Assembly (NCBI GenBank): GCA_963827235.1
Contig: CAWHAE010000009.1
Coordinates: 1,216,001-1,280,000, forward strand
Direction of reading: 5' to 3'
Source: an uncultured bacterium
GTDB lineage: Bacteria > Chloroflexota > UBA5177 > JANWHV01
Length of the DNA stretch: 64,000 nucleotides
Within the stretch, counting starts at the first letter, position 1; every line of letters starts with the position of its first letter. The notes under the pieces are model-generated. The model did not search any database, was not told where the DNA came from, and saw nothing but the letters and a program-made list of their open reading frames with translations. Both the position numbers and the translations under genes were made by a program. Shown in pieces: positions 36,495 through 46,153 of this stretch.

Positions 36495-37085
36495 ATGGAT
36501 GCCAAGCAGGACAAGCCGGAGGGTGCGCGCTTGGGCTGGACGGTGCTCGAGACCCGCTATCCGCTTCGCTCCCCGTGGCTTACCCTGCGCGAGGATCGCG
36601 TGCGGATCGCCGGCCACGGCGAGATCGTCTTCACCTACAGCGAGGCGACGCCCGCCGTCTACGTGGTGCCGATCACCAGGGCAGGCGACATGCTCTTGAT
36701 CCGGCAGTACCGCTATCCCGTGGATCGCTGGTCGCTCGAAGTGCCGGCCGGCGGCACGCACGACTTTCCGGGCGTGCCGCTGGACCAGGTGGCGCGAGCA
36801 GAGCTTGAGGAGGAGGTAGGAGCCGTGTGCGACGAGCTCGTGCCGGTAGCAGCGTTCCCTCTGCACGCCGCCAAGAGCGCGCAGCTTGGCCAGACGTTTC
36901 TCGCCACGGGCGTGGAGCTGAGCGCGACGCCCCGGCCGGCGGAAACAGAGTTGATCACGCTGCATGCGACTCCGGTCGCCGACGCCTATCACATGCTGCA
37001 CGCCGGCGAGATCTTCGATTGCCAGAGCGCCATGGCATTGCTGGTATGTGAGCCCCTTTTGCGGCAGCGCGGTCTGCTCGGCTAA
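36495..37085 (+). CDS. NUDIX hydrolase (ADP-ribose pyrophosphatase-like)
   Basis: LIRQYRYPV, LEVPAG, ARAELEEEVG Nudix box. Confidence 0.9.
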   Translation: MDAKQDKPEGARLGWTVLETRYPLRSPWLTLREDRVRIAGHGEIVFTYSEATPAVYVVPITRAGDMLLIRQYRYPVDRWSLEVPAGGTHDFPGVPLDQVARAELEEEVGAVCDELVPVAAFPLHAAKSAQLGQTFLATGVELSATPRPAETELITLHATPVADAYHMLHAGEIFDCQSAMALLVCEPLLRQRGLLG

Positions 37086-37985
37086 ATGGAGATTGCTGTT
37101 ACCGGCGCACGCGGGTACATCGGCAGGCATCTCGTGGCCCGGCTGGTGGCCGGGGGCGCGAGGCCCAGGTGCCTCGTGCGGCCGGGCGCTGACCTGGCGG
37201 TGCTTCCGACCGCGCAGATCGAGGTGGTGCGAGGAGACGTAACCGACGCGCGGTCGCTACCGGCGCTGGTAGAAGGCGTGGACTACGTGATCCACTGCGC
37301 GTCGATCGTGGCGAACGTCAAGCAGACCCGGCGCGACGCGTATCGATTGACGAATGTGGAAGGTACCGCCAGCCTCGTGGCGGCTGCCCAGGTGGCGGGC
37401 GTGCGCCGCTTCATCCACCTGGGAGGCATGAACACGGTACCCGGCGCGCCCGGTTCGTATATGCGCACGCGGTACGAGGCCGAGCAGCGGGTCGAGAGCG
37501 GCGGCGTGCCGTACGCTATCCTGCAACCGTCCATCCTGTTCGGCGACGGATCGCCGTTTTTCAGCGCTCTGGCCGGCCTGGTGCGGATAGCGCCGATCGT
37601 TCCCGTGCCGGGCAACGGCAGGATGCGCTTGCAGCCGATCTGGGTCGGAGATGTGGTCACGTGCCTGGAAGGACTGCTGGTCGACGACCACGCCGACGAG
37701 ACAGTGCCGGTGGGCGGCCCTGCCGCCTACTCCTACGATCGGCTCCTCGACACGATCATCACAGCAGCGGGGAAACGGCGCCTGAAGATGCACACGCCGC
37801 TACCGCTCATGCGTGCCGGCGCGCTGGTCATGCAGACCGTTCTGCCCAGGCCTCCAGTGACCACGGCGACGCTCGAGCTGTTCGCCGGGGGTGCCGACAA
37901 CGTGACGCGGCTCGACGCCGTGGTCGATCGCTTTGGCTTCGAGCCCCGGTCGCTCGAGGAGCACGCGCGGGTGAACGACCTCTGA
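37086..37985 (+). CDS. Atypical SDR / NAD(P)-dependent epimerase (NDUFA9-like)
   Basis: VTGARGYIG, QPSILFG, QPIWVGDV; abuts NUDIX stop. Confidence 0.85.
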   Translation: MEIAVTGARGYIGRHLVARLVAGGARPRCLVRPGADLAVLPTAQIEVVRGDVTDARSLPALVEGVDYVIHCASIVANVKQTRRDAYRLTNVEGTASLVAAAQVAGVRRFIHLGGMNTVPGAPGSYMRTRYEAEQRVESGGVPYAILQPSILFGDGSPFFSALAGLVRIAPIVPVPGNGRMRLQPIWVGDVVTCLEGLLVDDHADETVPVGGPAAYSYDRLLDTIITAAGKRRLKMHTPLPLMRAGALVMQTVLPRPPVTTATLELFAGGADNVTRLDAVVDRFGFEPRSLEEHARVNDL

Positions 37986-38269
37986 GGGCTCCTGTAGTAG
38001 CACCTACCGCGCCGCCCGATGGAGCAGGTGCTCGGCACTGTCGAGCAGTAGGTGCAGCGGCTGCACTGCGCGACCGTGCGAAGGGCATGCACCCAAGTCG
38101 AAGGCGCGTGAGGCGGGTCCTGGCAGGCGGGTACAAGATCTGTGCGGGAGCCGGCAGCGGCTATATTGACAGAATGGACTATGTCCCTCGCCCAGACGCG
38201 CCCGCATTCGCAGCACCAGGGTTGCGAATGCGTGAGAGCCGAGGCAGTGGGCGAAGCGAGTGAGGTAGA

Positions 38270-39298
38270 GTGTTGCTGATGCCGCTACGAATCGGAGTAA
38301 TCGGGACAGGGCTGGCGTTTCGAGAGCTCCACCTTCCCTGCGTGGCGGAGCTCAGGGAAAAGCTGCGTATCGCGGCAGTGGCGAATAGCACGCCTGCTTC
38401 GGCAGCGGCAGGGGCAGGGGCCGTCGCGGAGGCCACCGGCGTGCTTCCCGACGCGTGCGAGAGCGTCGAGCAGCTTCTGGACCGGCCCGACATCGGCGTT
38501 GTCCTGATAGCGGTGCCGATTCACCTCACTGCTGGCTACGTGCGGCAGGCATTGCTGCATGGAAAGGCGGTCTTTACCGAGAAACCGCTCGCGGATGACC
38601 TGGCCGACGCACACAGCCTGATTGAGCTGGCGCGGCGGATGGGCCTGCTGCTCTTCGTGGCGGAGAACTTCCGCTACCAGCGCCAATATCGACAGCTTGG
38701 CGTGCTGGCGCGCTCGGGCCTGATCGGGCAACCAGTCCTGTTTCGCTTGAACGACCTGCACTTCACCTCGCCGCAATCGAAGTACGCCGGCACTGCGTGG
38801 CGGCAGCAAGGCGCACACGCGGGCGGTTATCTGCTCGACGGCGGACCCCACACCATGGCCGGTGTGCGCTCGGTGGTGACCAGCCGGGTCACCGCGGTAC
38901 ACGGGATGACGGCGTCGTTCCACCCGGAGTTTCTGGCTCAGCAGCACGACACGCTGCTGTTGCACCTGACCTTCGAAGACGGCATGATCGGCGACGTGGG
39001 CTTGGGCTACGGCGCCGCGGATCCTGAAGGGCGCCGGCCGAAGATCTACGGACCCCAGGGCACGCTGATGATGTTGCGAGATCGCATCGAGCTCTGGACG
39101 CCTGGCTCGGCGGAGCCGGCGCAGCAATTCCCGCTGGACCTCAACGGCCCCGGCTTCAGAGAGGAGTGGCTTGATTTCTGCGGCGCGGCCGTCGAGCACA
39201 AACCCCTGGCCGGCACGCCGGAGGACGCCGTTGCGGATCTGGAGATCATACTGGCCGGCATAGAATCGGCCCGCACGGGTGAGGTGGTGCATCTCTAG
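38270..39298 (+). CDS. Gfo/Idh/MocA-family oxidoreductase
   Basis: RIGVIGTG, GKAVFTEKP, AENFRY, GGYLLDGGPH. Confidence 0.92.
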   Translation: MLLMPLRIGVIGTGLAFRELHLPCVAELREKLRIAAVANSTPASAAAGAGAVAEATGVLPDACESVEQLLDRPDIGVVLIAVPIHLTAGYVRQALLHGKAVFTEKPLADDLADAHSLIELARRMGLLLFVAENFRYQRQYRQLGVLARSGLIGQPVLFRLNDLHFTSPQSKYAGTAWRQQGAHAGGYLLDGGPHTMAGVRSVVTSRVTAVHGMTASFHPEFLAQQHDTLLLHLTFEDGMIGDVGLGYGAADPEGRRPKIYGPQGTLMMLRDRIELWTPGSAEPAQQFPLDLNGPGFREEWLDFCGAAVEHKPLAGTPEDAVADLEIILAGIESARTGEVVHL

Positions 39299-39310
39299 GA
39301 GGGCAGGAGG

Positions 39311-41206
39311 CTGGATACCTGGGTCATAGGGGTCGATCTCGGCGGCACGAAGACTGAAGTCGCGCTCGTGGATCCACGGAACAGGATCGCGGGCCGCCTG
39401 CGCATGGCCACGAACCCTTCGGAGGGTGCCCACAGCATCGTCGAGCGGATTGCCCGGTGCGTCGAGGGCCTGACCGGCCTCTTGCCCATGGACGAGCATA
39501 TCGCCGCGCTCGGCATCTGCTGTCCCGGTCCCGTGGATCAGGAGAGCGGCAACCTGTGTGATCCGCCCAACCTGGCCGGCCTGCACTATGCGCCGCTCCG
39601 TCAGCTGCTCGCGACACGCCTGCAGCTGCCCGTTAGCCTCGAGCACGACGCGAGAGCGGCAGCGCTGGGCGAATTCTACTACGGTTCCGGACGCGGCGAG
39701 CTGAGCATGGTCTATGTCGTGGTCGGTACCGGCGTGGGCGCGGCAATCATCGTCGACGGCAAGCTGTTCCGCGGGCCTTACAACTCCGCTGGTGAGATCG
39801 GCCACGTGGCGCTGGATCGGGACGGCGACATCTGCTCATGCGGCAACCGGGGCTGCGTGGAGACGTTTCTCAGCGGCCCCTGGCTGGCTCGCCGATTCGC
39901 GCGCGCGGCGAACGGCCACGTCACCGATCCCGGCGCGGCGGCGATCACCGGCGAGGCCGTGGTGGAGCTCGCCGGACGGGGAGACGCCTTGGCACGGCGC
40001 GTCATGGACGAGGCCGGCGCGGCACTGGGCACCGCCGTGGCAACCATGTCGATGGTGCTCAGCGTCGATCTCTATGTGATTGGCGGCAGCGTGGCGAAGG
40101 CGGGCGATCTGCTTCTCGAGCCGGCGCGGCGCGAAGTCTCCCGGCACTGCTTCCGATCCGTAAGCTGCGAGATTGGCATCGTGCCGGCTGAGCTCGGCGA
40201 CGACGGCCCCATTCTTGGCTGCGCGTGGCTGGCGCGTCAGCTACGGCATGGGCACGGCGCTCACGGCGGCGGTAGCATGCCGAGACGGCTGACGCACTCC
40301 GAACAGACCCGGCTCGAACAGGTTGAAGGGATGGTATTCGACATCCAGCGTTTCTCGCTGCACGACGGTGCGGGACTGCGCACCAACGTGTTCTTCAAAG
40401 GCTGCGCGATGCGCTGTCCGTGGTGCGCCAACCCCGAATCGCAGCATCGCGAGCCGGAGCTGTGGTATTCGGCGCAGCGGTGTATCGACTGCGGCCAATT
40501 CTCGCCTGCCTGCCGAGACTGCAAAGGACGGAACGGAGCAGCGGTGGGGCTCACCGGAATGCCTGACCGGGTGGCGAGGTGCCCGACCGGCGCGCTCCGG
40601 GTGGTCGGGGAGCGCCGGACCGCGGCGGATATCCTGGCCGAGGTGCTGCGCGACGTGCCTTTCTACGAAGGCGGTGGCGGCATGACGTTGACCGGAGGCG
40701 AGCCGGCATTCCAGCCGCGGCTGGCAGAGGCGCTGCTCCGCCTTGCCAGGCATCATCAGATCGCGACGGCGGTCGAGACGAGCGGGCACACGCGCTGGCG
40801 CGTGGTGGAGCGCCTGCTGCCGTACGTGGACGAAGTACTGTTCGACCTGAAGCACGTGGATGGCGCGATACATCGGGCAGCCACCGGTGTCGATACCGAG
40901 CTGATACTTGCCAATCTGCACCGGTTGGCGACTCTGCACGCGCCACTGACCGTGCGAGTGCCGCTGATTCCCGGCTTCAACACCGACGAAACGAGCCTGA
41001 GCGCAATCGCGGACTGCGTGCGAGCCCTGGATGGACCGCCGAGACCCGTGCACCTGCTACCCTACCACACGCTGGGTCGGGCGAAATACGGTGCCCTCAA
41101 TCGGCAGTATCCATGGGAAGGGCACGATCGCCTGACGGATACGCAAATCGCCGCATGCCGGGCGGTATTCGACTCGTGCGGCCTCTCCGTGAGCGTCGGC
41201 GGCTGA
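39311..41206 (+). CDS. ROK-family sugar kinase fused to glycyl-radical enzyme activase (radical SAM)
   Basis: IGVDLGGT, EHDARAAALGE, GEIGH, CSCGNRGCVE; linker RHGHGAHGGGS; FDIQRFSLHDGAGLRTNVFFKGCAMRCPWCANPES, GGMTLTGGEP, LLPYH; no stop between domains; start inferred at CTG. Confidence 0.85.
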   Translation: MDTWVIGVDLGGTKTEVALVDPRNRIAGRLRMATNPSEGAHSIVERIARCVEGLTGLLPMDEHIAALGICCPGPVDQESGNLCDPPNLAGLHYAPLRQLLATRLQLPVSLEHDARAAALGEFYYGSGRGELSMVYVVVGTGVGAAIIVDGKLFRGPYNSAGEIGHVALDRDGDICSCGNRGCVETFLSGPWLARRFARAANGHVTDPGAAAITGEAVVELAGRGDALARRVMDEAGAALGTAVATMSMVLSVDLYVIGGSVAKAGDLLLEPARREVSRHCFRSVSCEIGIVPAELGDDGPILGCAWLARQLRHGHGAHGGGSMPRRLTHSEQTRLEQVEGMVFDIQRFSLHDGAGLRTNVFFKGCAMRCPWCANPESQHREPELWYSAQRCIDCGQFSPACRDCKGRNGAAVGLTGMPDRVARCPTGALRVVGERRTAADILAEVLRDVPFYEGGGGMTLTGGEPAFQPRLAEALLRLARHHQIATAVETSGHTRWRVVERLLPYVDEVLFDLKHVDGAIHRAATGVDTELILANLHRLATLHAPLTVRVPLIPGFNTDETSLSAIADCVRALDGPPRPVHLLPYHTLGRAKYGALNRQYPWEGHDRLTDTQIAACRAVFDSCGLSVSVGG

Positions 41207-41221
41207 GATGGGAGGTGCAGT

Positions 41222-43669
41222 GTGTCCGTGCTTGTAGGCGAGCTGGGCATTCCGTATTTGCGCCAACACCCGGAGGCCGCCTTTCCCGACGATTCGCAGC
41301 TGGCCGGCGTGGCGTCCGAGCGCTGCGCCCGCCTGAAGACGCGGCTCTTCGCGGGCGAGCGCGAGATCGACTGTGAGCGCGCGCGCCACACCACCGAAGC
41401 CTACCGTGCCACCGAAGGTGAAGCCATGCCCATCCGCCGCGCCAAGATGCTGCTGCATCTCGTCCAGCGGTTGAGCATCGCCATACATCCCGACGAGCTG
41501 ATCGTGGGCAATCGTTCGCTCAAGCCGCGCATGGGCGTGATCGCGCCGGAGGGCGCGGTCGACTGGGTCGACCGGGAGCTCGACATCCTGCCGGCGCGAC
41601 CCCAAGATCGCTTTGCCGTTCGGCCCGAGCAGGTGCGCGAGCTGCGCGAGCAGATCTTCCCGTATTGGCGCGGCCGGACGCTGGAAGACATGGTGGCTGG
41701 GCGTGTGCCGGATGACGTCCGGGCGGCGGTAGAGGCCAAGGCCTTCAGTCTGAACCAGACGGACCACGCGCAGGGGCATATCCTGCCCGACGTTGCCGGC
41801 TGGCTGCGTCTCGGCGTGGGTGGCCTGCGCGCGCGGGTACAGGCGTGCCGGCAGCAACAGGGGGCGCGGCCGGCGGAGCAACAGACCTTCTACGAGGCCG
41901 CGGACATCGCCCTGGACGCGGCTGCCGTGTTGATGCGGCGCTACGGGGAGCTTGCCCGGCAGGAAGCACGGTCGAGCACCTCACCGGCCCGCGAGCAGGA
42001 GTTGTCGCGGATCGCCGAGCACTGCGAGCGGCTCAGCGAGCACCCGGCGCGGAGCTTCCGGGAGGCGCTGCAGGCCGTCTGGTTCCTCTTCGTGCTGCTG
42101 CAGATCGAGTCCAACGCCAGCAGCTTCTCACCAGGCCGCTTCGATCAGTACATGCTGCCGTACCTGGAGGCAGACCTGCAGGCAGGCACGCTGTCGCTGG
42201 CCGAGGCGCAGGAGCTGCTGGAGTGCCTCTGGCTCAAGTTCAACGAAATCGTCTTGCTCCGCAGCAGCGCCAGCGCCCGGTACTTCGCCGGCTTCCCGAT
42301 CGGGTTCAACGTTATCCTGGGCGGCCAGCTGCCCGGAGGGGTCGACGCCACGAACTTTCTCAGCTACATGTGCCTGCGGGCGCAGTCCGACCTCGGTTTA
42401 ACCCAGCCCAACCTATCCGTTCGTGTGTACGATAAGAGCCCACAGGCGTTCCTGCTCGCGGCGGCCCGCGTGATCGGCAAGGGGAGCGGCATGCCGCAGG
42501 TCTTCAACGACGACGTGATCGTTCCCGGGCAGATCAATCGCGGCATCGCACCCGACGATGCCGTGAACTACGCGGTCGTGGGCTGCGTGGAGCTCTCGAC
42601 ACCCGGCAAGGCGCTCGGCTGGAGCGATGCCTCCATGTTCAATCTGACCCGCGTGCTGGAACTGACGCTGTTCGGCGGCAAGGATCCGCGGAGCGGGATC
42701 CAGGCCGGCCTGCCCACGCCGCCCCTCGACGAAATGGGCTCGATGGACGACGTGGAGGAGGCATACGACCGCCAGCTCGTCCGCTTCGTGGACCTGATGG
42801 TAGAGGGCTGCAACGTCGTGGACCGGCTGCACGCGGAGATACTACCGTCGCCGTTCCTGTCCCTGCTGATCGAGGACTGCATCGGGCGTGGCCTGGACGT
42901 GACGGCCGGCGGGGCTACCTACAACTTCAGCGGGGTGCAGGGAGTGCAGATTGCCAATGTGGCCGACAGTCTCGCCGCCGTTCGAGCAGCGGTGTTCGAG
43001 CAGAAGTGGCTGACGGGCTCCGAGCTGCTCACCACGCTGCGGCGCAACTTCCAGGATGACGAGGTGCTGCGCCAGCGCCTGATCAACCGCGTGCCGAAGT
43101 ACGGGAACGACGACGATCGAGTGGACCGGTTGGCGCGGAAGTGGGCGCGGCGCTACTGTGGCCTGGTCGAGCAGCACCCGAACGTGCGCGGGGGCATGTA
43201 TCAGCCGGGCTTCTACACCGTCTCCGCGCACGTGCCCATGGGCGCCAACGTGGGCGCAATGCCGGACGGCCGCCGGTCCGGCGAGCCGCTGGCCGACGGC
43301 GGCATCTCGCCCATGACCGGCCGCGATGAGAAGGGGCCTACGGCCGTGCTGCGGTCGGTCGGCAGCATGGACCTGGCGCTGGCCTCCAACGGCACGCTGC
43401 TGAACATGAAGTTCTCGCCGCAGTTCTTCGATGGAGAGCACGCCACGGCGCAATTCGCGGCGCTGCTGCGTGGCTTCTGCCGCCTGCGCATTCCGCACGT
43501 GCAATTCAACGTCGTCTCGGCCACCACACTGCGTGCAGCCCAGGCGAGCCCTGCCGAGTATCGATCGCTGGTCGTGCGGGTGGCCGGGTACAGCGCGTAC
43601 TTCACCGAGCTGGACAGGGACCTGCAAGACGAGATCATCCGCCGGACCGAATTCGGCCGGCAGATGTGA
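41222..43669 (+). CDS. pflD: Glycyl radical enzyme, PflD-like clade
   Basis: RVAGYSAYF glycyl loop, single-Cys GCVELS; ESNASSFSPGRFDQYM, IVLLRSSASARYFAGFP, YNFSGVQG and YTVSAHVP match E. coli PflD as recalled; GGAGG RBS. Confidence 0.85.
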   Translation: MSVLVGELGIPYLRQHPEAAFPDDSQLAGVASERCARLKTRLFAGEREIDCERARHTTEAYRATEGEAMPIRRAKMLLHLVQRLSIAIHPDELIVGNRSLKPRMGVIAPEGAVDWVDRELDILPARPQDRFAVRPEQVRELREQIFPYWRGRTLEDMVAGRVPDDVRAAVEAKAFSLNQTDHAQGHILPDVAGWLRLGVGGLRARVQACRQQQGARPAEQQTFYEAADIALDAAAVLMRRYGELARQEARSSTSPAREQELSRIAEHCERLSEHPARSFREALQAVWFLFVLLQIESNASSFSPGRFDQYMLPYLEADLQAGTLSLAEAQELLECLWLKFNEIVLLRSSASARYFAGFPIGFNVILGGQLPGGVDATNFLSYMCLRAQSDLGLTQPNLSVRVYDKSPQAFLLAAARVIGKGSGMPQVFNDDVIVPGQINRGIAPDDAVNYAVVGCVELSTPGKALGWSDASMFNLTRVLELTLFGGKDPRSGIQAGLPTPPLDEMGSMDDVEEAYDRQLVRFVDLMVEGCNVVDRLHAEILPSPFLSLLIEDCIGRGLDVTAGGATYNFSGVQGVQIANVADSLAAVRAAVFEQKWLTGSELLTTLRRNFQDDEVLRQRLINRVPKYGNDDDRVDRLARKWARRYCGLVEQHPNVRGGMYQPGFYTVSAHVPMGANVGAMPDGRRSGEPLADGGISPMTGRDEKGPTAVLRSVGSMDLALASNGTLLNMKFSPQFFDGEHATAQFAALLRGFCRLRIPHVQFNVVSATTLRAAQASPAEYRSLVVRVAGYSAYFTELDRDLQDEIIRRTEFGRQM

Positions 43670-43702
43670 GCATATCTACCTGACGGCGGCCGCCGGATGC
43701 AG

Positions 43703-44374
43703 TCACCCGCCCTGGTGCGCGAGATTTGCCACCGCCGAGTTGAACTCGCTCACGCTGCTCGGATGCAGCGTCTGGGAGAACGTGCCGCCGAGAAAGCCGG
43801 TGAAGATCGACCATGGGAGGCCGCTCACGGTGAGCGTGCCATTGTCGTTGCGAATGCCGGTGAACGACATCGAGCTCGAGCTGCCGGTCCCCGTGAAACC
43901 GTAGCTACCGCTGTTGTCGAGGCCGCTGAACTGGAACGACTTCGCGCTGTGGGCTTGGTAGTTATCGGCGGTGAGGATACGCCCTTGCTTGATGAAGCCG
44001 TTCGTCTCCGTCCAGTCCATGTACAGCACGTAGCTGTACTTGTCGATCAGGAATGAGGCGAGGTAGCTGCGGGCGCCGTTGTCGGAAGACGACGGCGTAG
44101 GCTGCGCGGTGGCCGCCCTCTGTAGCTGCTCGATGATCTGCTGTTGCCGAGCCTCCACGGTCTGGGCCGCCACGACGAGCTGCCCCTCGCGCGCCACCTG
44201 GGTGGTCAAGGCGGCAACGCTGCCATCCGTCGCGTTTGCCTGGTGACCGCCGTTCGATCGCATCGACTGCACGAGCGCGAAAGCAAGTCCGATGGTCACG
44301 ACGGTAAGCACGATGCAGAGTGTTCCCAGCGAAAATGCCGGGCTTCGTCGCTTGGATGTATTGACTCTTGACAT
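43703..44374 (-). CDS. Hypothetical single-TM protein with coiled coil and beta-rich extracytoplasmic domain
   Basis: TM LGTLCIVLTVVTIGLAFALV, Gln-rich heptads, Ser/Thr/Gly/aromatic-rich C-terminus; GGAG RBS. Confidence 0.7.
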   Translation of the reverse strand: MSRVNTSKRRSPAFSLGTLCIVLTVVTIGLAFALVQSMRSNGGHQANATDGSVAALTTQVAREGQLVVAAQTVEARQQQIIEQLQRAATAQPTPSSSDNGARSYLASFLIDKYSYVLYMDWTETNGFIKQGRILTADNYQAHSAKSFQFSGLDNSGSYGFTGTGSSSSMSFTGIRNDNGTLTVSGLPWSIFTGFLGGTFSQTLHPSSVSEFNSAVANLAHQGG

Positions 44375-44393
44375 GGGCACTCCCTGGCCGGGC

Positions 44394-45935
44394 TTACGGC
44401 CCCGGACGCGACCCGCGGGGTTCCGCATCGTGACCGGCGCGCGTGGCCGGTCCAGGGTTCACGGCCGCTGCGGTCGCAGCATCGTCGGGCGCGGATCGCT
44501 GCGCGTTGACGAACTCTTGAATCACGACGTGGCAGAGAGCCACGATCGGCACGGCGAAGAAGGCACCGGGCAGGCCGGCCAGCGGCAGTCCGACCAGCGC
44601 CGCTGCCATCGCCTCCAGTGGATGAATGCGAAGATGGTGCGCTTGCAGCCGGGGTCCCACCACGTTGGTGATGATCTGCTCCCCGATCAGCAGCCATGCC
44701 AGGTAGACAATCGGTTTCGGCAAGGGCGTGAAGATGAGGGCGACGGCGAGCGGCGGGATCGGCAGCACTACCGGGCCCAGTACGGGCACCAGCGAGAGCA
44801 GGAAGCTGCTGAAGAAGATCACGATGGCATAGGGAATACCCAGTATGACGGCGCCGGTCGCATCGGCCAGACCGGCAAGCAAGCCGAGCAGGATCTGCGT
44901 GCGCACGTAGCGCCCGAGGATCTCATCCAGGCTGGCCATCGCGCGCACGGCCTGTGGCCGGGACTTGCGTGGTGCGAGGTAGGTGATCCAGCGCGCGAAT
45001 CGAGCACCGTCCTTCAAGAAATAGATGGAGATGATGAAGATCAACACGACGTCGAGCAGCAGGTTTCCTGCCTGCAGGCCGATGTTGACCGCGTTGTTGA
45101 GCAGGGACGATATCTGATCGTTGATCGACTTCAACACCTGGCTGAACTTGTCGTGAAGATCCGCCGAGACGCCGCGCTGGTCGAGGTCGGCCTGGAGATT
45201 GAGCAGGAGCAGCGGTGTGGATGCCGCCTTCTGGTAGGTAGTATTGGCCTGGTTGAGCGCCTGGTCTGCCTGCAGGCGAAAGTGCGCGAGCCAGGCCGAG
45301 CTGAGCGCGGATTGAGCCGATCCGTAGGCGGCTTGCACCTGGCGAGCACTTGCCAGGATGGGATTGGCATAGCTGGGGGGGATGGCCACCACGCCGTCCG
45401 GAGTCTGGTCCACCGTGAGTACCGATGCGTCGTGCACGAGCGTCGCCAGCGCCGACTCTGTGCTCCGGATTTGGTCGATGGAGACCGGGTGGCTGACGGC
45501 AATGGCGCTCTGCTGGGCGCTGACGTTCGTGAGCACCGCCGCATAGTCGTTCTTTACCGCGACGAGACGCACGAGGCTGCTCTTTGCAGGGTTTTCCAGA
45601 TTCTTGATCAGATCCTTGGCTTCGGACACGAACGGGGTCAGGAGCAGAAAGCCGAAGCCCAGGGCGCAGGCAAACAGCAGGATGTAGGCACCGATCACGG
45701 CCGCCCAGTGCTTGCGCACCACGTGCTGGAGCAGGCGCACGGCGGGCGCCATAAGGTAGGCCAGCAGCGCCCCGATCAGGAACATGTAGAGCACCGCTCG
45801 GAAGCGATCGAACAAGCCGAGCACGTCGCTCAGCAGCCCAAGCAGGGTCTGGGCGATCAGCAACACGGCCAGGACGATCAGTACGCGAATGAGGAGGCCG
45901 AGATTCTGCGGTTGATCCGGTTCCAACAGGTGCAA
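44394..45935 (-). CDS. AI-2E (PerM) family transporter with large soluble insertion
   Basis: [39 protein letters not shown]; AGGAGGA RBS. Confidence 0.88.
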
Positions 45936-46153
45936 CTAACAGTCCTCCTGTAGCCGGTTCCGGCTCATGGCATGCGATCTGCTGCGGCTCCGACCTTCAT
46001 GATATAACGGGAGGGACATTCCGCTCACTGGAGGGATGCGTCCGGGTTTCCCATACACCTGGCTGTGGCCGGGTGGGCGAGACGAGAACGGGTGCCCGGC
46101 CGGAAACGCATGGAGGCGCGCGCTGCAGGCGCAGCGACGGCGAGGAGGCAAGA

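Follow-up and report, generated by a model that had tools for sequence, protein, structure and literature searches.

A ROK kinase::activase fusion beside a PflD-like glycyl radical enzyme in an uncultured Chloroflexota bacterium: a candidate phosphotransferase-independent entry into an anhydroglycolysis-type pathway

The three-gene locus and its proteins

A stretch of 64,000 nucleotides (the window; C9:1216001-1280000, G+C content 60-70%) from the genome of an uncultured Chloroflexota bacterium (soil or sediment) was analyzed. The host genome (G000) comprises 7.98 Mb in 21 contigs and is rated 95.9% complete and 9% contaminated. Judged by PurK, the nearest relatives with a name are 'Chloroflexi bacterium' (72%) and 'Chloroflexota bacterium' (61%). 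At positions 38270-43669 of the window, three open frames, all on the plus strand, encode a Gfo/Idh/MocA oxidoreductase (gene 1), a ROK kinase fused to a glycyl radical enzyme (GRE) activase (gene 2) and a GRE (gene 3). The locus is a three-gene operon, and we consider it a candidate for sugar entry into a radical ring-opening pathway that does not depend on the phosphotransferase system (PTS). Its features are as follows (window positions; lengths in amino acids, aa).

38270..39298, plus strand: gene 1, Gfo/Idh/MocA-family NAD(P) oxidoreductase, 342 aa (Pfam PF01408, PF22725 and PF02894)
39296..39313, plus strand: junction of genes 1 and 2, with the TAG stop at 39296-39298, a Shine-Dalgarno-like GGAGGG at 39298-39303 and CTG at 39311-39313
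39311..41206, plus strand: gene 2, the fusion, 631 aa, both halves in one continuous frame
39311..40240, plus strand: ROK sugar-kinase domain, residues 1-310 (Pfam ROK, PF00480, 217.3 bits over residues 5-310)
40241..40333, plus strand: Gly/His-rich linker, residues about 311-341, seen in the translation and as a variable gapped stretch of the fusion alignment
40334..41206, plus strand: GRE-activating radical S-adenosylmethionine (SAM) domain, residues 342-631 (TIGR02494, 293.7 bits against a cut-off of 174.35, residues 342-622)
41222..43669, plus strand: gene 3, GRE, 815 aa (PF02901 PFL-like, 707.6 bits; PF01228 Gly_radical, 101.7 bits)
42584-42586 (C455) and 42590-42592 (E457), plus strand: Cys loop VGCVELS, invariant in the GRE alignment
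43586-43588 (G789), plus strand: glycyl radical motif VRVAGYSAY, invariant in the GRE alignment

Catalytic motifs and domains are intact in all three proteins. The intergenic gaps are 12 nucleotides (nt) between genes 1 and 2 (39299-39310), valid only with CTG 39311 as the start of gene 2, and 15 nt between genes 2 and 3 (41207-41221). An earlier note on this DNA, made from the sequence alone, had described three tightly spaced co-directional genes, a PflD-like GRE and no PTS, aldolase or microcompartment gene nearby. All of this was confirmed: no gene of these three kinds was found among the 20 open reading frames (ORFs) scanned between 30.4 and 52.8 kb of the window, and the best PDB match of the GRE is Escherichia coli PflD (8yjo, 776 bits). 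A microcompartment shell gene was not found genome-wide. A promoter and terminator scan of 36900-44600 returned counts at or below the shuffle expectation and was uninformative.

The CTG at 39311 was taken as the start of gene 2 because it is the sole start that retains the DLGGTK motif. It is aligned with the initiator Met of 18 homologues, the GGAGGG lies 7 nt upstream, and the first 20 residues read from it match the homologues, DLGGTK included. The first canonical start is GTG 39368, which would cost the DLGGT motif. The public gene call (P0004, 600 aa) is N-terminally truncated, starts about 31 codons downstream and has lost DLGGT as well.

The ROK motifs (D9-LGGT-K14, D113, E162/H165 of ExGH, and the zinc ligands C175/C177/C182 in CSCGNRGC) are invariant across 19 fusions. 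The domain therefore carries DxGxT, the catalytic Asp, ExGH and the Zn Cys motif of ROK kinases; no helix-turn-helix was seen, and Pfam detected no DNA-binding domain in the fusion ROK. In the available part of the NagK paper, the residue matching D9 is the metal-binding Asp, that matching D113 is the catalytic base at the 6-OH, those matching E162/H165 are sugar ligands, and the Asn of the canonical Asn-Asp (ND) pair binds the sugar. The window's ROK has His112-Asp113 (HD; 39644-39649) in place of Asn-Asp and so falls outside the ND type. This His precedes the catalytic Asp in 54/54 ROK rows of at least 47% identity, a count that includes the window twice and four duplicate loci, and in 0/36 more distant rows. 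The best PDB matches are the ROK glucokinases 2qm1 (159 bits) and 3vgk (149 bits), and Mlc and a NagC-like regulator are also among the matches. With these glucokinases and NagK the domain shares a full ROK fold match (149-159 bits) and the four motifs, but it scores below the cut-off of the ROK glucokinase subfamily model (192.8 vs 260.35), has His for the sugar-binding Asn and carries a radical SAM activase fused at its C terminus.

The activase half belongs to TIGR02494, with a score above the cut-off and a CX3CX2C motif that reads CAMRCPWC (residues 365-372, at 40403-40426). In Pfam, gene 2 also matched Radical_SAM (58.9 bits) and Fer4_12 (34.9 bits). The ferredoxin-like insert for auxiliary clusters (window 40475-40594) has only four conserved Cys (C391, C394, C401 and C424). 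Unlike this insert, more distant ROK::activase fusions have recognizable two-cluster Fer4 domains.

When the fusion was searched against 5.8 billion clustered proteins, 245 matches were obtained at E ≤0.001. Among the best 120 of these 245, which include the window's own entry, 94 clusters contain both the ROK and the Radical_SAM Pfam domains, and many of the clusters listed bear the JGI name 'glycyl-radical enzyme activating protein/glucokinase-like ROK family protein'. The ROK::activase fusion is thus recurrent. Two types of ROK occur in such fusions, HD (as in the window) and ND. A full-text literature search, which did not cover the 2024 primary paper and its supplements, returned no print record of a pathway kinase fused to a GRE activase, and the available text of the 2026 GRE review does not mention 'fused', 'fusion' or 'ROK'. 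Genes 1 and 2 share a reading frame, with the TAG and four codons between them, and a Gfo::ROK::activase tri-fusion by read-through of this TAG was also considered. It was rejected, as none of the matches listed exceeded 701 aa, with lengths searched to 1105 aa.

Gene 1 matched GFO_IDH_MocA (PF01408) at 72.7 bits, has both C-terminal domains of the family and carries the motifs GTGLAF (Rossmann), EKP and D190-x3-H. Its best PDB match is 1zh8 (uncharacterized Thermotoga oxidoreductase, 125 bits), and it reaches no NCBIfam cut-off (the top model, iolG, gave 100 bits vs 355). The earlier note had proposed that it could be a 1,5-anhydrofructose reductase. With the Sinorhizobium morelense 1,5-anhydro-D-fructose reductase (2glx) it shares the superfamily, EKP and D-x3-H, but it is no closer to this enzyme than to glucose-fructose or aldose-aldose oxidoreductase: 2glx gave 55 bits, 4koa 41 bits and the aldose-aldose oxidoreductase 65 bits, far below 1zh8. 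The 2glx score is like that of many family members, no specific orthologous likeness to the characterized reductase was found, and the putative anhydrofructose reductase identity has no support beyond family membership.

The expectation that the three genes would be conserved together also failed for gene 1. No close Gfo relative was found in the fetched homologous loci (the best was a partial match of 29-33%) and none in a pattern scan of genome_contigs. Among 40 relatives of the host, an orthologue (77% identical; runner-up 37%) is confined to G001, a genome of the same genus; the 41-genome tallies include one unpublished genome (G018), on which no specific claim depends. For the distant Gfo homologues (30-37%) in relatives, the labelled neighbours within 1.5 kb each side were uninformative. 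The Gfo gene is not co-conserved with the kinase, activase and GRE. It is a genus-specific accessory whose probable role is a keto reduction or oxidation of the free sugar.

The GRE among its relatives and the genes around them

According to the available text of reviews from 2025 and 2026, YbiW acts on 1,5-anhydroglucitol-6-phosphate (AG6P) and PflD on 1,5-anhydromannitol-6-phosphate (AM6P). Both cleave the ring C-O bond to give 1-deoxyfructose-6-phosphate (DF6P), with the CxE glutamate deprotonating the C2 hydroxyl, and aldolases then cut DF6P into glyceraldehyde-3-phosphate and hydroxyacetone. The same sources assign phosphorylation and entry to the PTS, date the description of this PTS-fed pathway, anhydroglycolysis, to 2024 and to gut bacteria, and place the reduction of 1,5-anhydrofructose to 1,5-anhydromannitol in Rhizobiaceae. 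The CxE motif is typical of GREs that cleave C-O and C-N bonds (2026 review, available part). The chemistry given in the earlier note (PflD opening AM6P to DF6P after PTS uptake) agrees with these accounts.

Gene 3 passes TIGR01774, the PFL2/glycerol dehydratase subfamily (867.4 bits vs cut-off 678.2). Its tblastn identities are 47.7% (E. coli PflD) and 39.6% (YbiW), and its further PDB matches are the AM6P-bound PflD (8id0, 674 bits), glycerol dehydratase (647 bits) and YbiW (499 bits). For phylogenetic analysis, 136 full-length rows were collected from loci found by activase motifs and GRE motifs, with E. coli PflD and YbiW added. Sequences under 700 aa and those interrupted by stops were removed, including the frameshifted GREs of L003/L139 and L004/L101 (69-77% identical to the window's). 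In the FastTree tree of the 136 rows, a 57-row clade (support 100) consists of clade A (25 rows, including E. coli PflD) and clade B (32 rows, support 100), and the window together with five Chloroflexota or Acidobacteriota sequences forms group B1 within clade B (support 99). A quick IQ-TREE tree of 43 rows (LG+C20+F+G4) had the same topology, with SH-aLRT values of 96 for A+B, 100 for A, 99 for B, 99 for B1 and 99 for the YbiW clade. The nearest homologues of the GRE and of the fusion are titled Chloroflexia, Anaerolineae and Anaerolineales.

Scores against the NCBI PflD equivalog NF007437 are 1108.5-1725 for clade A, 847 and 875 for two other B1 members, 720-776 for the rest of clade B and 579 for YbiW. 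Signature positions were defined as the 82 alignment columns at least 90% conserved in clade A and less than 25% among 66 other GREs. Of these, the window has 45/82, the consensus of the remaining clade-B rows 35/82 and that of the YbiW clade 7/82. Judged by its sequence, gene 3 is PflD-like, yet it lies outside the clade of established activity.

Gene neighbourhoods were compared for 70 PflD-like or YbiW-like loci, 7 kb each side, labelled by BLAST to Pfam-annotated representatives; kin among these loci are not independent. PTS genes, recognized solely by BLAST likeness to enteric Frw/PtsA-type components so that other PTS families could escape, occur in 18/70 loci and ROK in 12/70, and no locus has both (0/70). 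In Pseudomonadota, 14/18 loci have PTS genes and 0/18 a ROK. The counts are 0/9 and 5/9 in Chloroflexota (window counted) and 0/4 and 3/4 in Spirochaetota, so that the PTS is dominant in enterics and ROK in these two phyla. YbiW-clade loci contain a ROK in 6/13 cases (Chloroflexota, Spirochaetota, Bacteroidota and Bacillota). These YbiW-linked ROKs have the canonical ND pair, and in L006 an ND-type ROK::activase fusion adjoins the YbiW-clade GRE. Three observations favour a ROK kinase as the substitute for the PTS: the natural fusion, the ROK genes beside PflD-like and YbiW-like GREs in non-enteric phyla, and the 0/70 co-occurrence.

Unfused ROK orthologues were found in the same kind of locus in L002, L004, L177 and L225. 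Two YbiW-clade GRE loci (L117 and L208) combine a ROK of HD type (54-55% identity to that of the window) with an ND-type ROK adjoining the activase; in L208 the HD-type ROK sits after a GMC dehydrogenase. With the ROK domain as seed, 56 metagenome loci were retrieved that encode a ROK of at least 47% identity; 29 of them extend at least 700 nt downstream and could be assessed. In 17/29 of these, a GRE (55-74% identical to the window's) or an activase lies directly 3' of the ROK, five of them in fusion order. Distinct clade-B1 genome loci have a ROK in 5/9 cases and an oxidoreductase neighbour in 5/9. Part of the seeding of the locus sets used activase motifs of the fusion or ROK itself, and all of these figures for ROK linkage are inflated by it.

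The oxidoreductase neighbours are of several families. A GMC-type FAD dehydrogenase is present in L002, L004 and L095 and lies upstream of ROK in L182, L204, L205, L206, L208 and L211; its best solved relatives are the large subunits of fructose and glucose dehydrogenase (about 135 bits). L004 and L010 encode zinc alcohol dehydrogenases (Zn-ADHs), and further Gfo enzymes are present in L004 and L178. Clade-B1 GREs and HD-type ROKs thus repeatedly have an oxidoreductase of one family or another beside them, which makes a preparatory redox step on the free sugar plausible as a class.

FSA-type aldolase genes flank 15/25 clade-A loci, 7/26 other clade-B loci and 0/6 B1 genome loci; in a metagenome locus of B1 type (L174), an FSA-like gene lies just beyond the GRE. 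Their presence at 7/26 other clade-B loci argues for an FSA-cleavable product of clade-B GREs. Tandem GREs of YbiW-like and clade-B type were seen in three Bacillota loci (L104 and L107, both titled Christensenellaceae, and L109, Clostridiales), and a tandem of YbiW-like and clade-A PflD type in L169 (Lactobacillus ultunensis). Because the former mirror the latter, they hint that clade B may fill the role of PflD.

In G001, a Gfo-activase-GRE block is 75-78% identical to the window at the nucleotide level. The frame is broken in the alignments of its activase and GRE, either by real decay or by assembly error. Eleven flanking window genes (seven upstream and four downstream) had no match in 18 kb around this block, which therefore moves as one. 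No GRE match was obtained in the three other genomes of the genus (83-92% complete).

As regards the host, the earlier note had suggested a lineage that lacks the PTS route. This held in part: no sugar-PTS enzyme IIC of PF02378 or PF03609 was found in the 95.9%-complete genome, other IIC families not having been searched, but enzyme I and HPr are encoded. The only genes for these two proteins adjoin DhaL and DhaK (C10:374972-379365; L278, 8973-13366), and this cluster is a PTS-type dihydroxyacetone kinase system, not a sugar-uptake PTS.

The suggested anaerobic capability is plausible, as the genome holds three GRE/activase pairs. However, a haem-copper oxidase is also encoded, and its presence beside these pairs makes the host probably facultative, not a strict anaerobe. 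A class III ribonucleotide reductase was not found in the host genome. The two further GREs (C9:170085-171923, L280, and C12:1078123-1079889, L281) are uncharacterized proteins of about 730 aa with a partial PFL-like match and activases of their own. One of them adjoins a LacI-type regulator and a gene like that of serine hydroxymethyltransferase, the other a GntR/PBP regulator and a sugar ABC transporter.

Proposed pathway and competing explanations

The locus was compared with the E. coli frw-pflDC-fsaB-gldA cluster. Both have a PFL-like barrel, a GCxE Cys loop, the RVxG motif and an activase gene adjoining the GRE, and a sugar 6-phosphate is the expected substrate. The window differs in having no FrwBCD/PtsA PTS and no linked FsaB or GldA, and in possessing the ROK-fused activase and the Gfo gene. 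Set against the anhydroglycolysis gene set, it has no PTS beside the GRE and a ROK kinase instead. With E. coli YbiW/YbiY, the window shares the enzyme class, the proposed downstream product and, for some YbiW-clade loci, the ROK linkage, whereas its GRE belongs to a separate clade and its linked ROK is HD, not ND. Anhydroglycolysis by way of E. coli PflD was reportedly presented by Ma et al. in JACS in 2024.

Given the fusion, the co-location and the mutual exclusion of ROK and PTS, it is highly probable that the kinase, the activase and the PflD-like GRE act as one PTS-independent sugar-phosphate pathway. Our favoured explanation is more specific, namely an ATP-dependent, PTS-independent entry into a pathway of the anhydroglycolysis type, in which an anhydrohexitol or a close analogue is ring-opened. 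We give it a probability of roughly 0.6. AM6P as the particular substrate is a tentative assignment, and the odds are somewhat against it.

In this pathway, the ROK domain would phosphorylate O6 of a 1,5-anhydrohexitol or of a closely related sugar of the deoxy or anhydro type. The fused radical SAM domain, assigned here by family, would install the glycyl radical on the GRE. By analogy to PflD and YbiW, the GRE would then abstract a hydrogen by means of its CxE Cys loop and open the ring C-O bond, and the predicted product, a 1-deoxy-ketohexose-6-phosphate, would be cut by an aldolase encoded elsewhere. The Gfo/Idh/MocA accessory would probably act on the free sugar, preparing or interconverting it by keto reduction or oxidation. 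The related loci suggest that kinase-fed anhydroglycolysis may exist in environmental members of Chloroflexota, Acidobacteriota, Spirochaetota and Bacteroidota; radical ring-opening of sugars would then have a wider ecological range. The fusion is a direct Rosetta-stone handle for assigning a substrate to an uncharacterized GRE clade, and suggested targets for biochemistry are the HD-type ROK, the GRE of clade B and the recurring oxidoreductases (FAD, Zn and Gfo).

A number of observations weigh against the anhydroglycolysis-type pathway. First, placement of the GRE within the PflD clade had been set beforehand as a decisive test, and in both trees the window's GRE falls outside the clade that holds the characterized PflD, in sister clade B; it also fails NF007437 (862.4 bits vs cut-off 1109). 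Beside the Cys loop there is a systematic difference, with LSIPGRTYGLHDI in clade A vs LSTPGKALGWSDA in clades B and B1. Polar residues of clade A are replaced (K152->H, Y326->F, Y429->L, R488->A and R516->T, E. coli numbering), and with the changes near the Cys loop these indicate that the substrate may differ from AM6P. Second, no aldolase is linked to the operon, and the Pfam scan of its ORFs revealed no transporter. The sole FSA/TalC-like gene of the host genome (C10:431880-432548) is unlinked and 29-30% identical to FsaA/B. It scores 165 bits vs a family cut-off of 245.95, keeps the Schiff-base Lys context VVKLP, and its neighbours are enolase-superfamily, UxaE-like and SDR genes, an unrelated cluster. 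Third, neither a GRE nor an activase adjoins the ROK in 12/29 assessable metagenome loci, and no ROK was seen in 4/9 clade-B1 genome loci within the DNA examined; the seeding of the locus sets and the narrow recognition of PTS genes count on the same side. Finally, the stretch from the TAG of gene 1 (39296-39298) to the ATP-binding DLGGT contains no ATG, GTG or TTG, and in G001 ROK residues 1-255 are deleted, with window 39298-40075 replaced by about 138 unrelated bases (L277, G001:C8, 9094-9233).

The first group of these points bears on the alternative that survives best, in which clade-B GREs use another phosphorylated sugar or polyol (a stereoisomer of the anhydrohexitol, or a compound that is dehydrated rather than ring-opened), with the ROK and the variable oxidoreductases tuned to that compound. 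It would account for the sister-clade position below the PflD cut-off and for the substitutions next to the Cys loop and at the polar positions conserved in clade A. The same is true of the linked ROK orthogroup with His for the sugar-binding Asn (54/54 vs 0/36 rows), and of recurrent neighbours that are FAD sugar dehydrogenases of the fructose or glucose dehydrogenase type, Zn-ADHs and Gfo enzymes rather than FSA. However, the 45/82 clade-A signature positions in the window, the FSA genes at 7/26 other clade-B loci and at L174, the tandems with clade B that mirror the one with clade A, and the retained CxE motif all speak for chemistry close to that of PflD. We regard this alternative as unlikely, though a serious contender. 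A bolder version holds that clade-B GREs are a third sugar-phosphate ring-opening or eliminating enzyme, whose substrate is neither AG6P nor AM6P and is supplied by the HD-type ROK, and that sugar or ATP binding by the ROK gates radical installation. This is quite doubtful. If true, the oxygen-labile GRE would be armed only with substrate present, and the fusion would do more than co-express its halves.

The absence of a canonical start ahead of the ATP-binding motif, together with the public call truncated to 600 aa, would also fit a cassette that is decaying in the genus. The kinase half would then not be made, or not be made whole, leaving a Gfo-activase-GRE unit that relies on another kinase or is non-functional. 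G001, which lacks ROK residues 1-255 and has frame-broken activase and GRE alignments, is in line with this, as are the three other same-genus genomes without a GRE match, and nine other ROK-like matches of at least 80 bits in the host genome could supply a kinase. On the other hand, an uninterrupted frame runs from CTG 39311, its first 20 residues are homologue-like including DLGGTK, the GGAGGG is well spaced, the catalytic motifs of all three proteins are intact, and errors of assembly may explain the frame breaks in G001. Decay of the cassette therefore appears improbable.

Many ROK proteins are sugar-responsive regulators. That the ROK is mainly a sensor gating the fused activase until substrate is present, and not the pathway kinase, is very improbable: its PDB matches do include Mlc and a NagC-like regulator, it is physically joined to the activase rather than to the GRE, and G001 retains the activase without most of the ROK, but it has no DNA-binding domain, its closest relatives are glucokinases, its ATP motif and its metal-binding and catalytic Asp residues do not vary among the fusions, and the unfused orthologues in the same loci (L002, L004, L177 and L225) fit an enzyme better than a tethered sensor.

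Other genes beside the GRE and in clade-B loci

Directly 3' of the GRE in the window lie two long overlapping ORFs (44292-45953 on the plus strand and 43703-44428 on the minus strand) without a Pfam or NCBIfam match; one or both may be spurious in such G+C-rich DNA. In L104 and L107, genes for D-lyxose isomerase, a lactonase and a HAD phosphatase are found alongside the tandem GREs. In six clade-B loci, the gene directly after that of the activase encodes a conserved protein of about 675 aa without a Pfam, NCBIfam or PDB match (L119:12118-14145; homologues in L129, L104, L107, L109 and L110). Shikimate-dehydrogenase-like, Gfo and GMC genes are often found with it.

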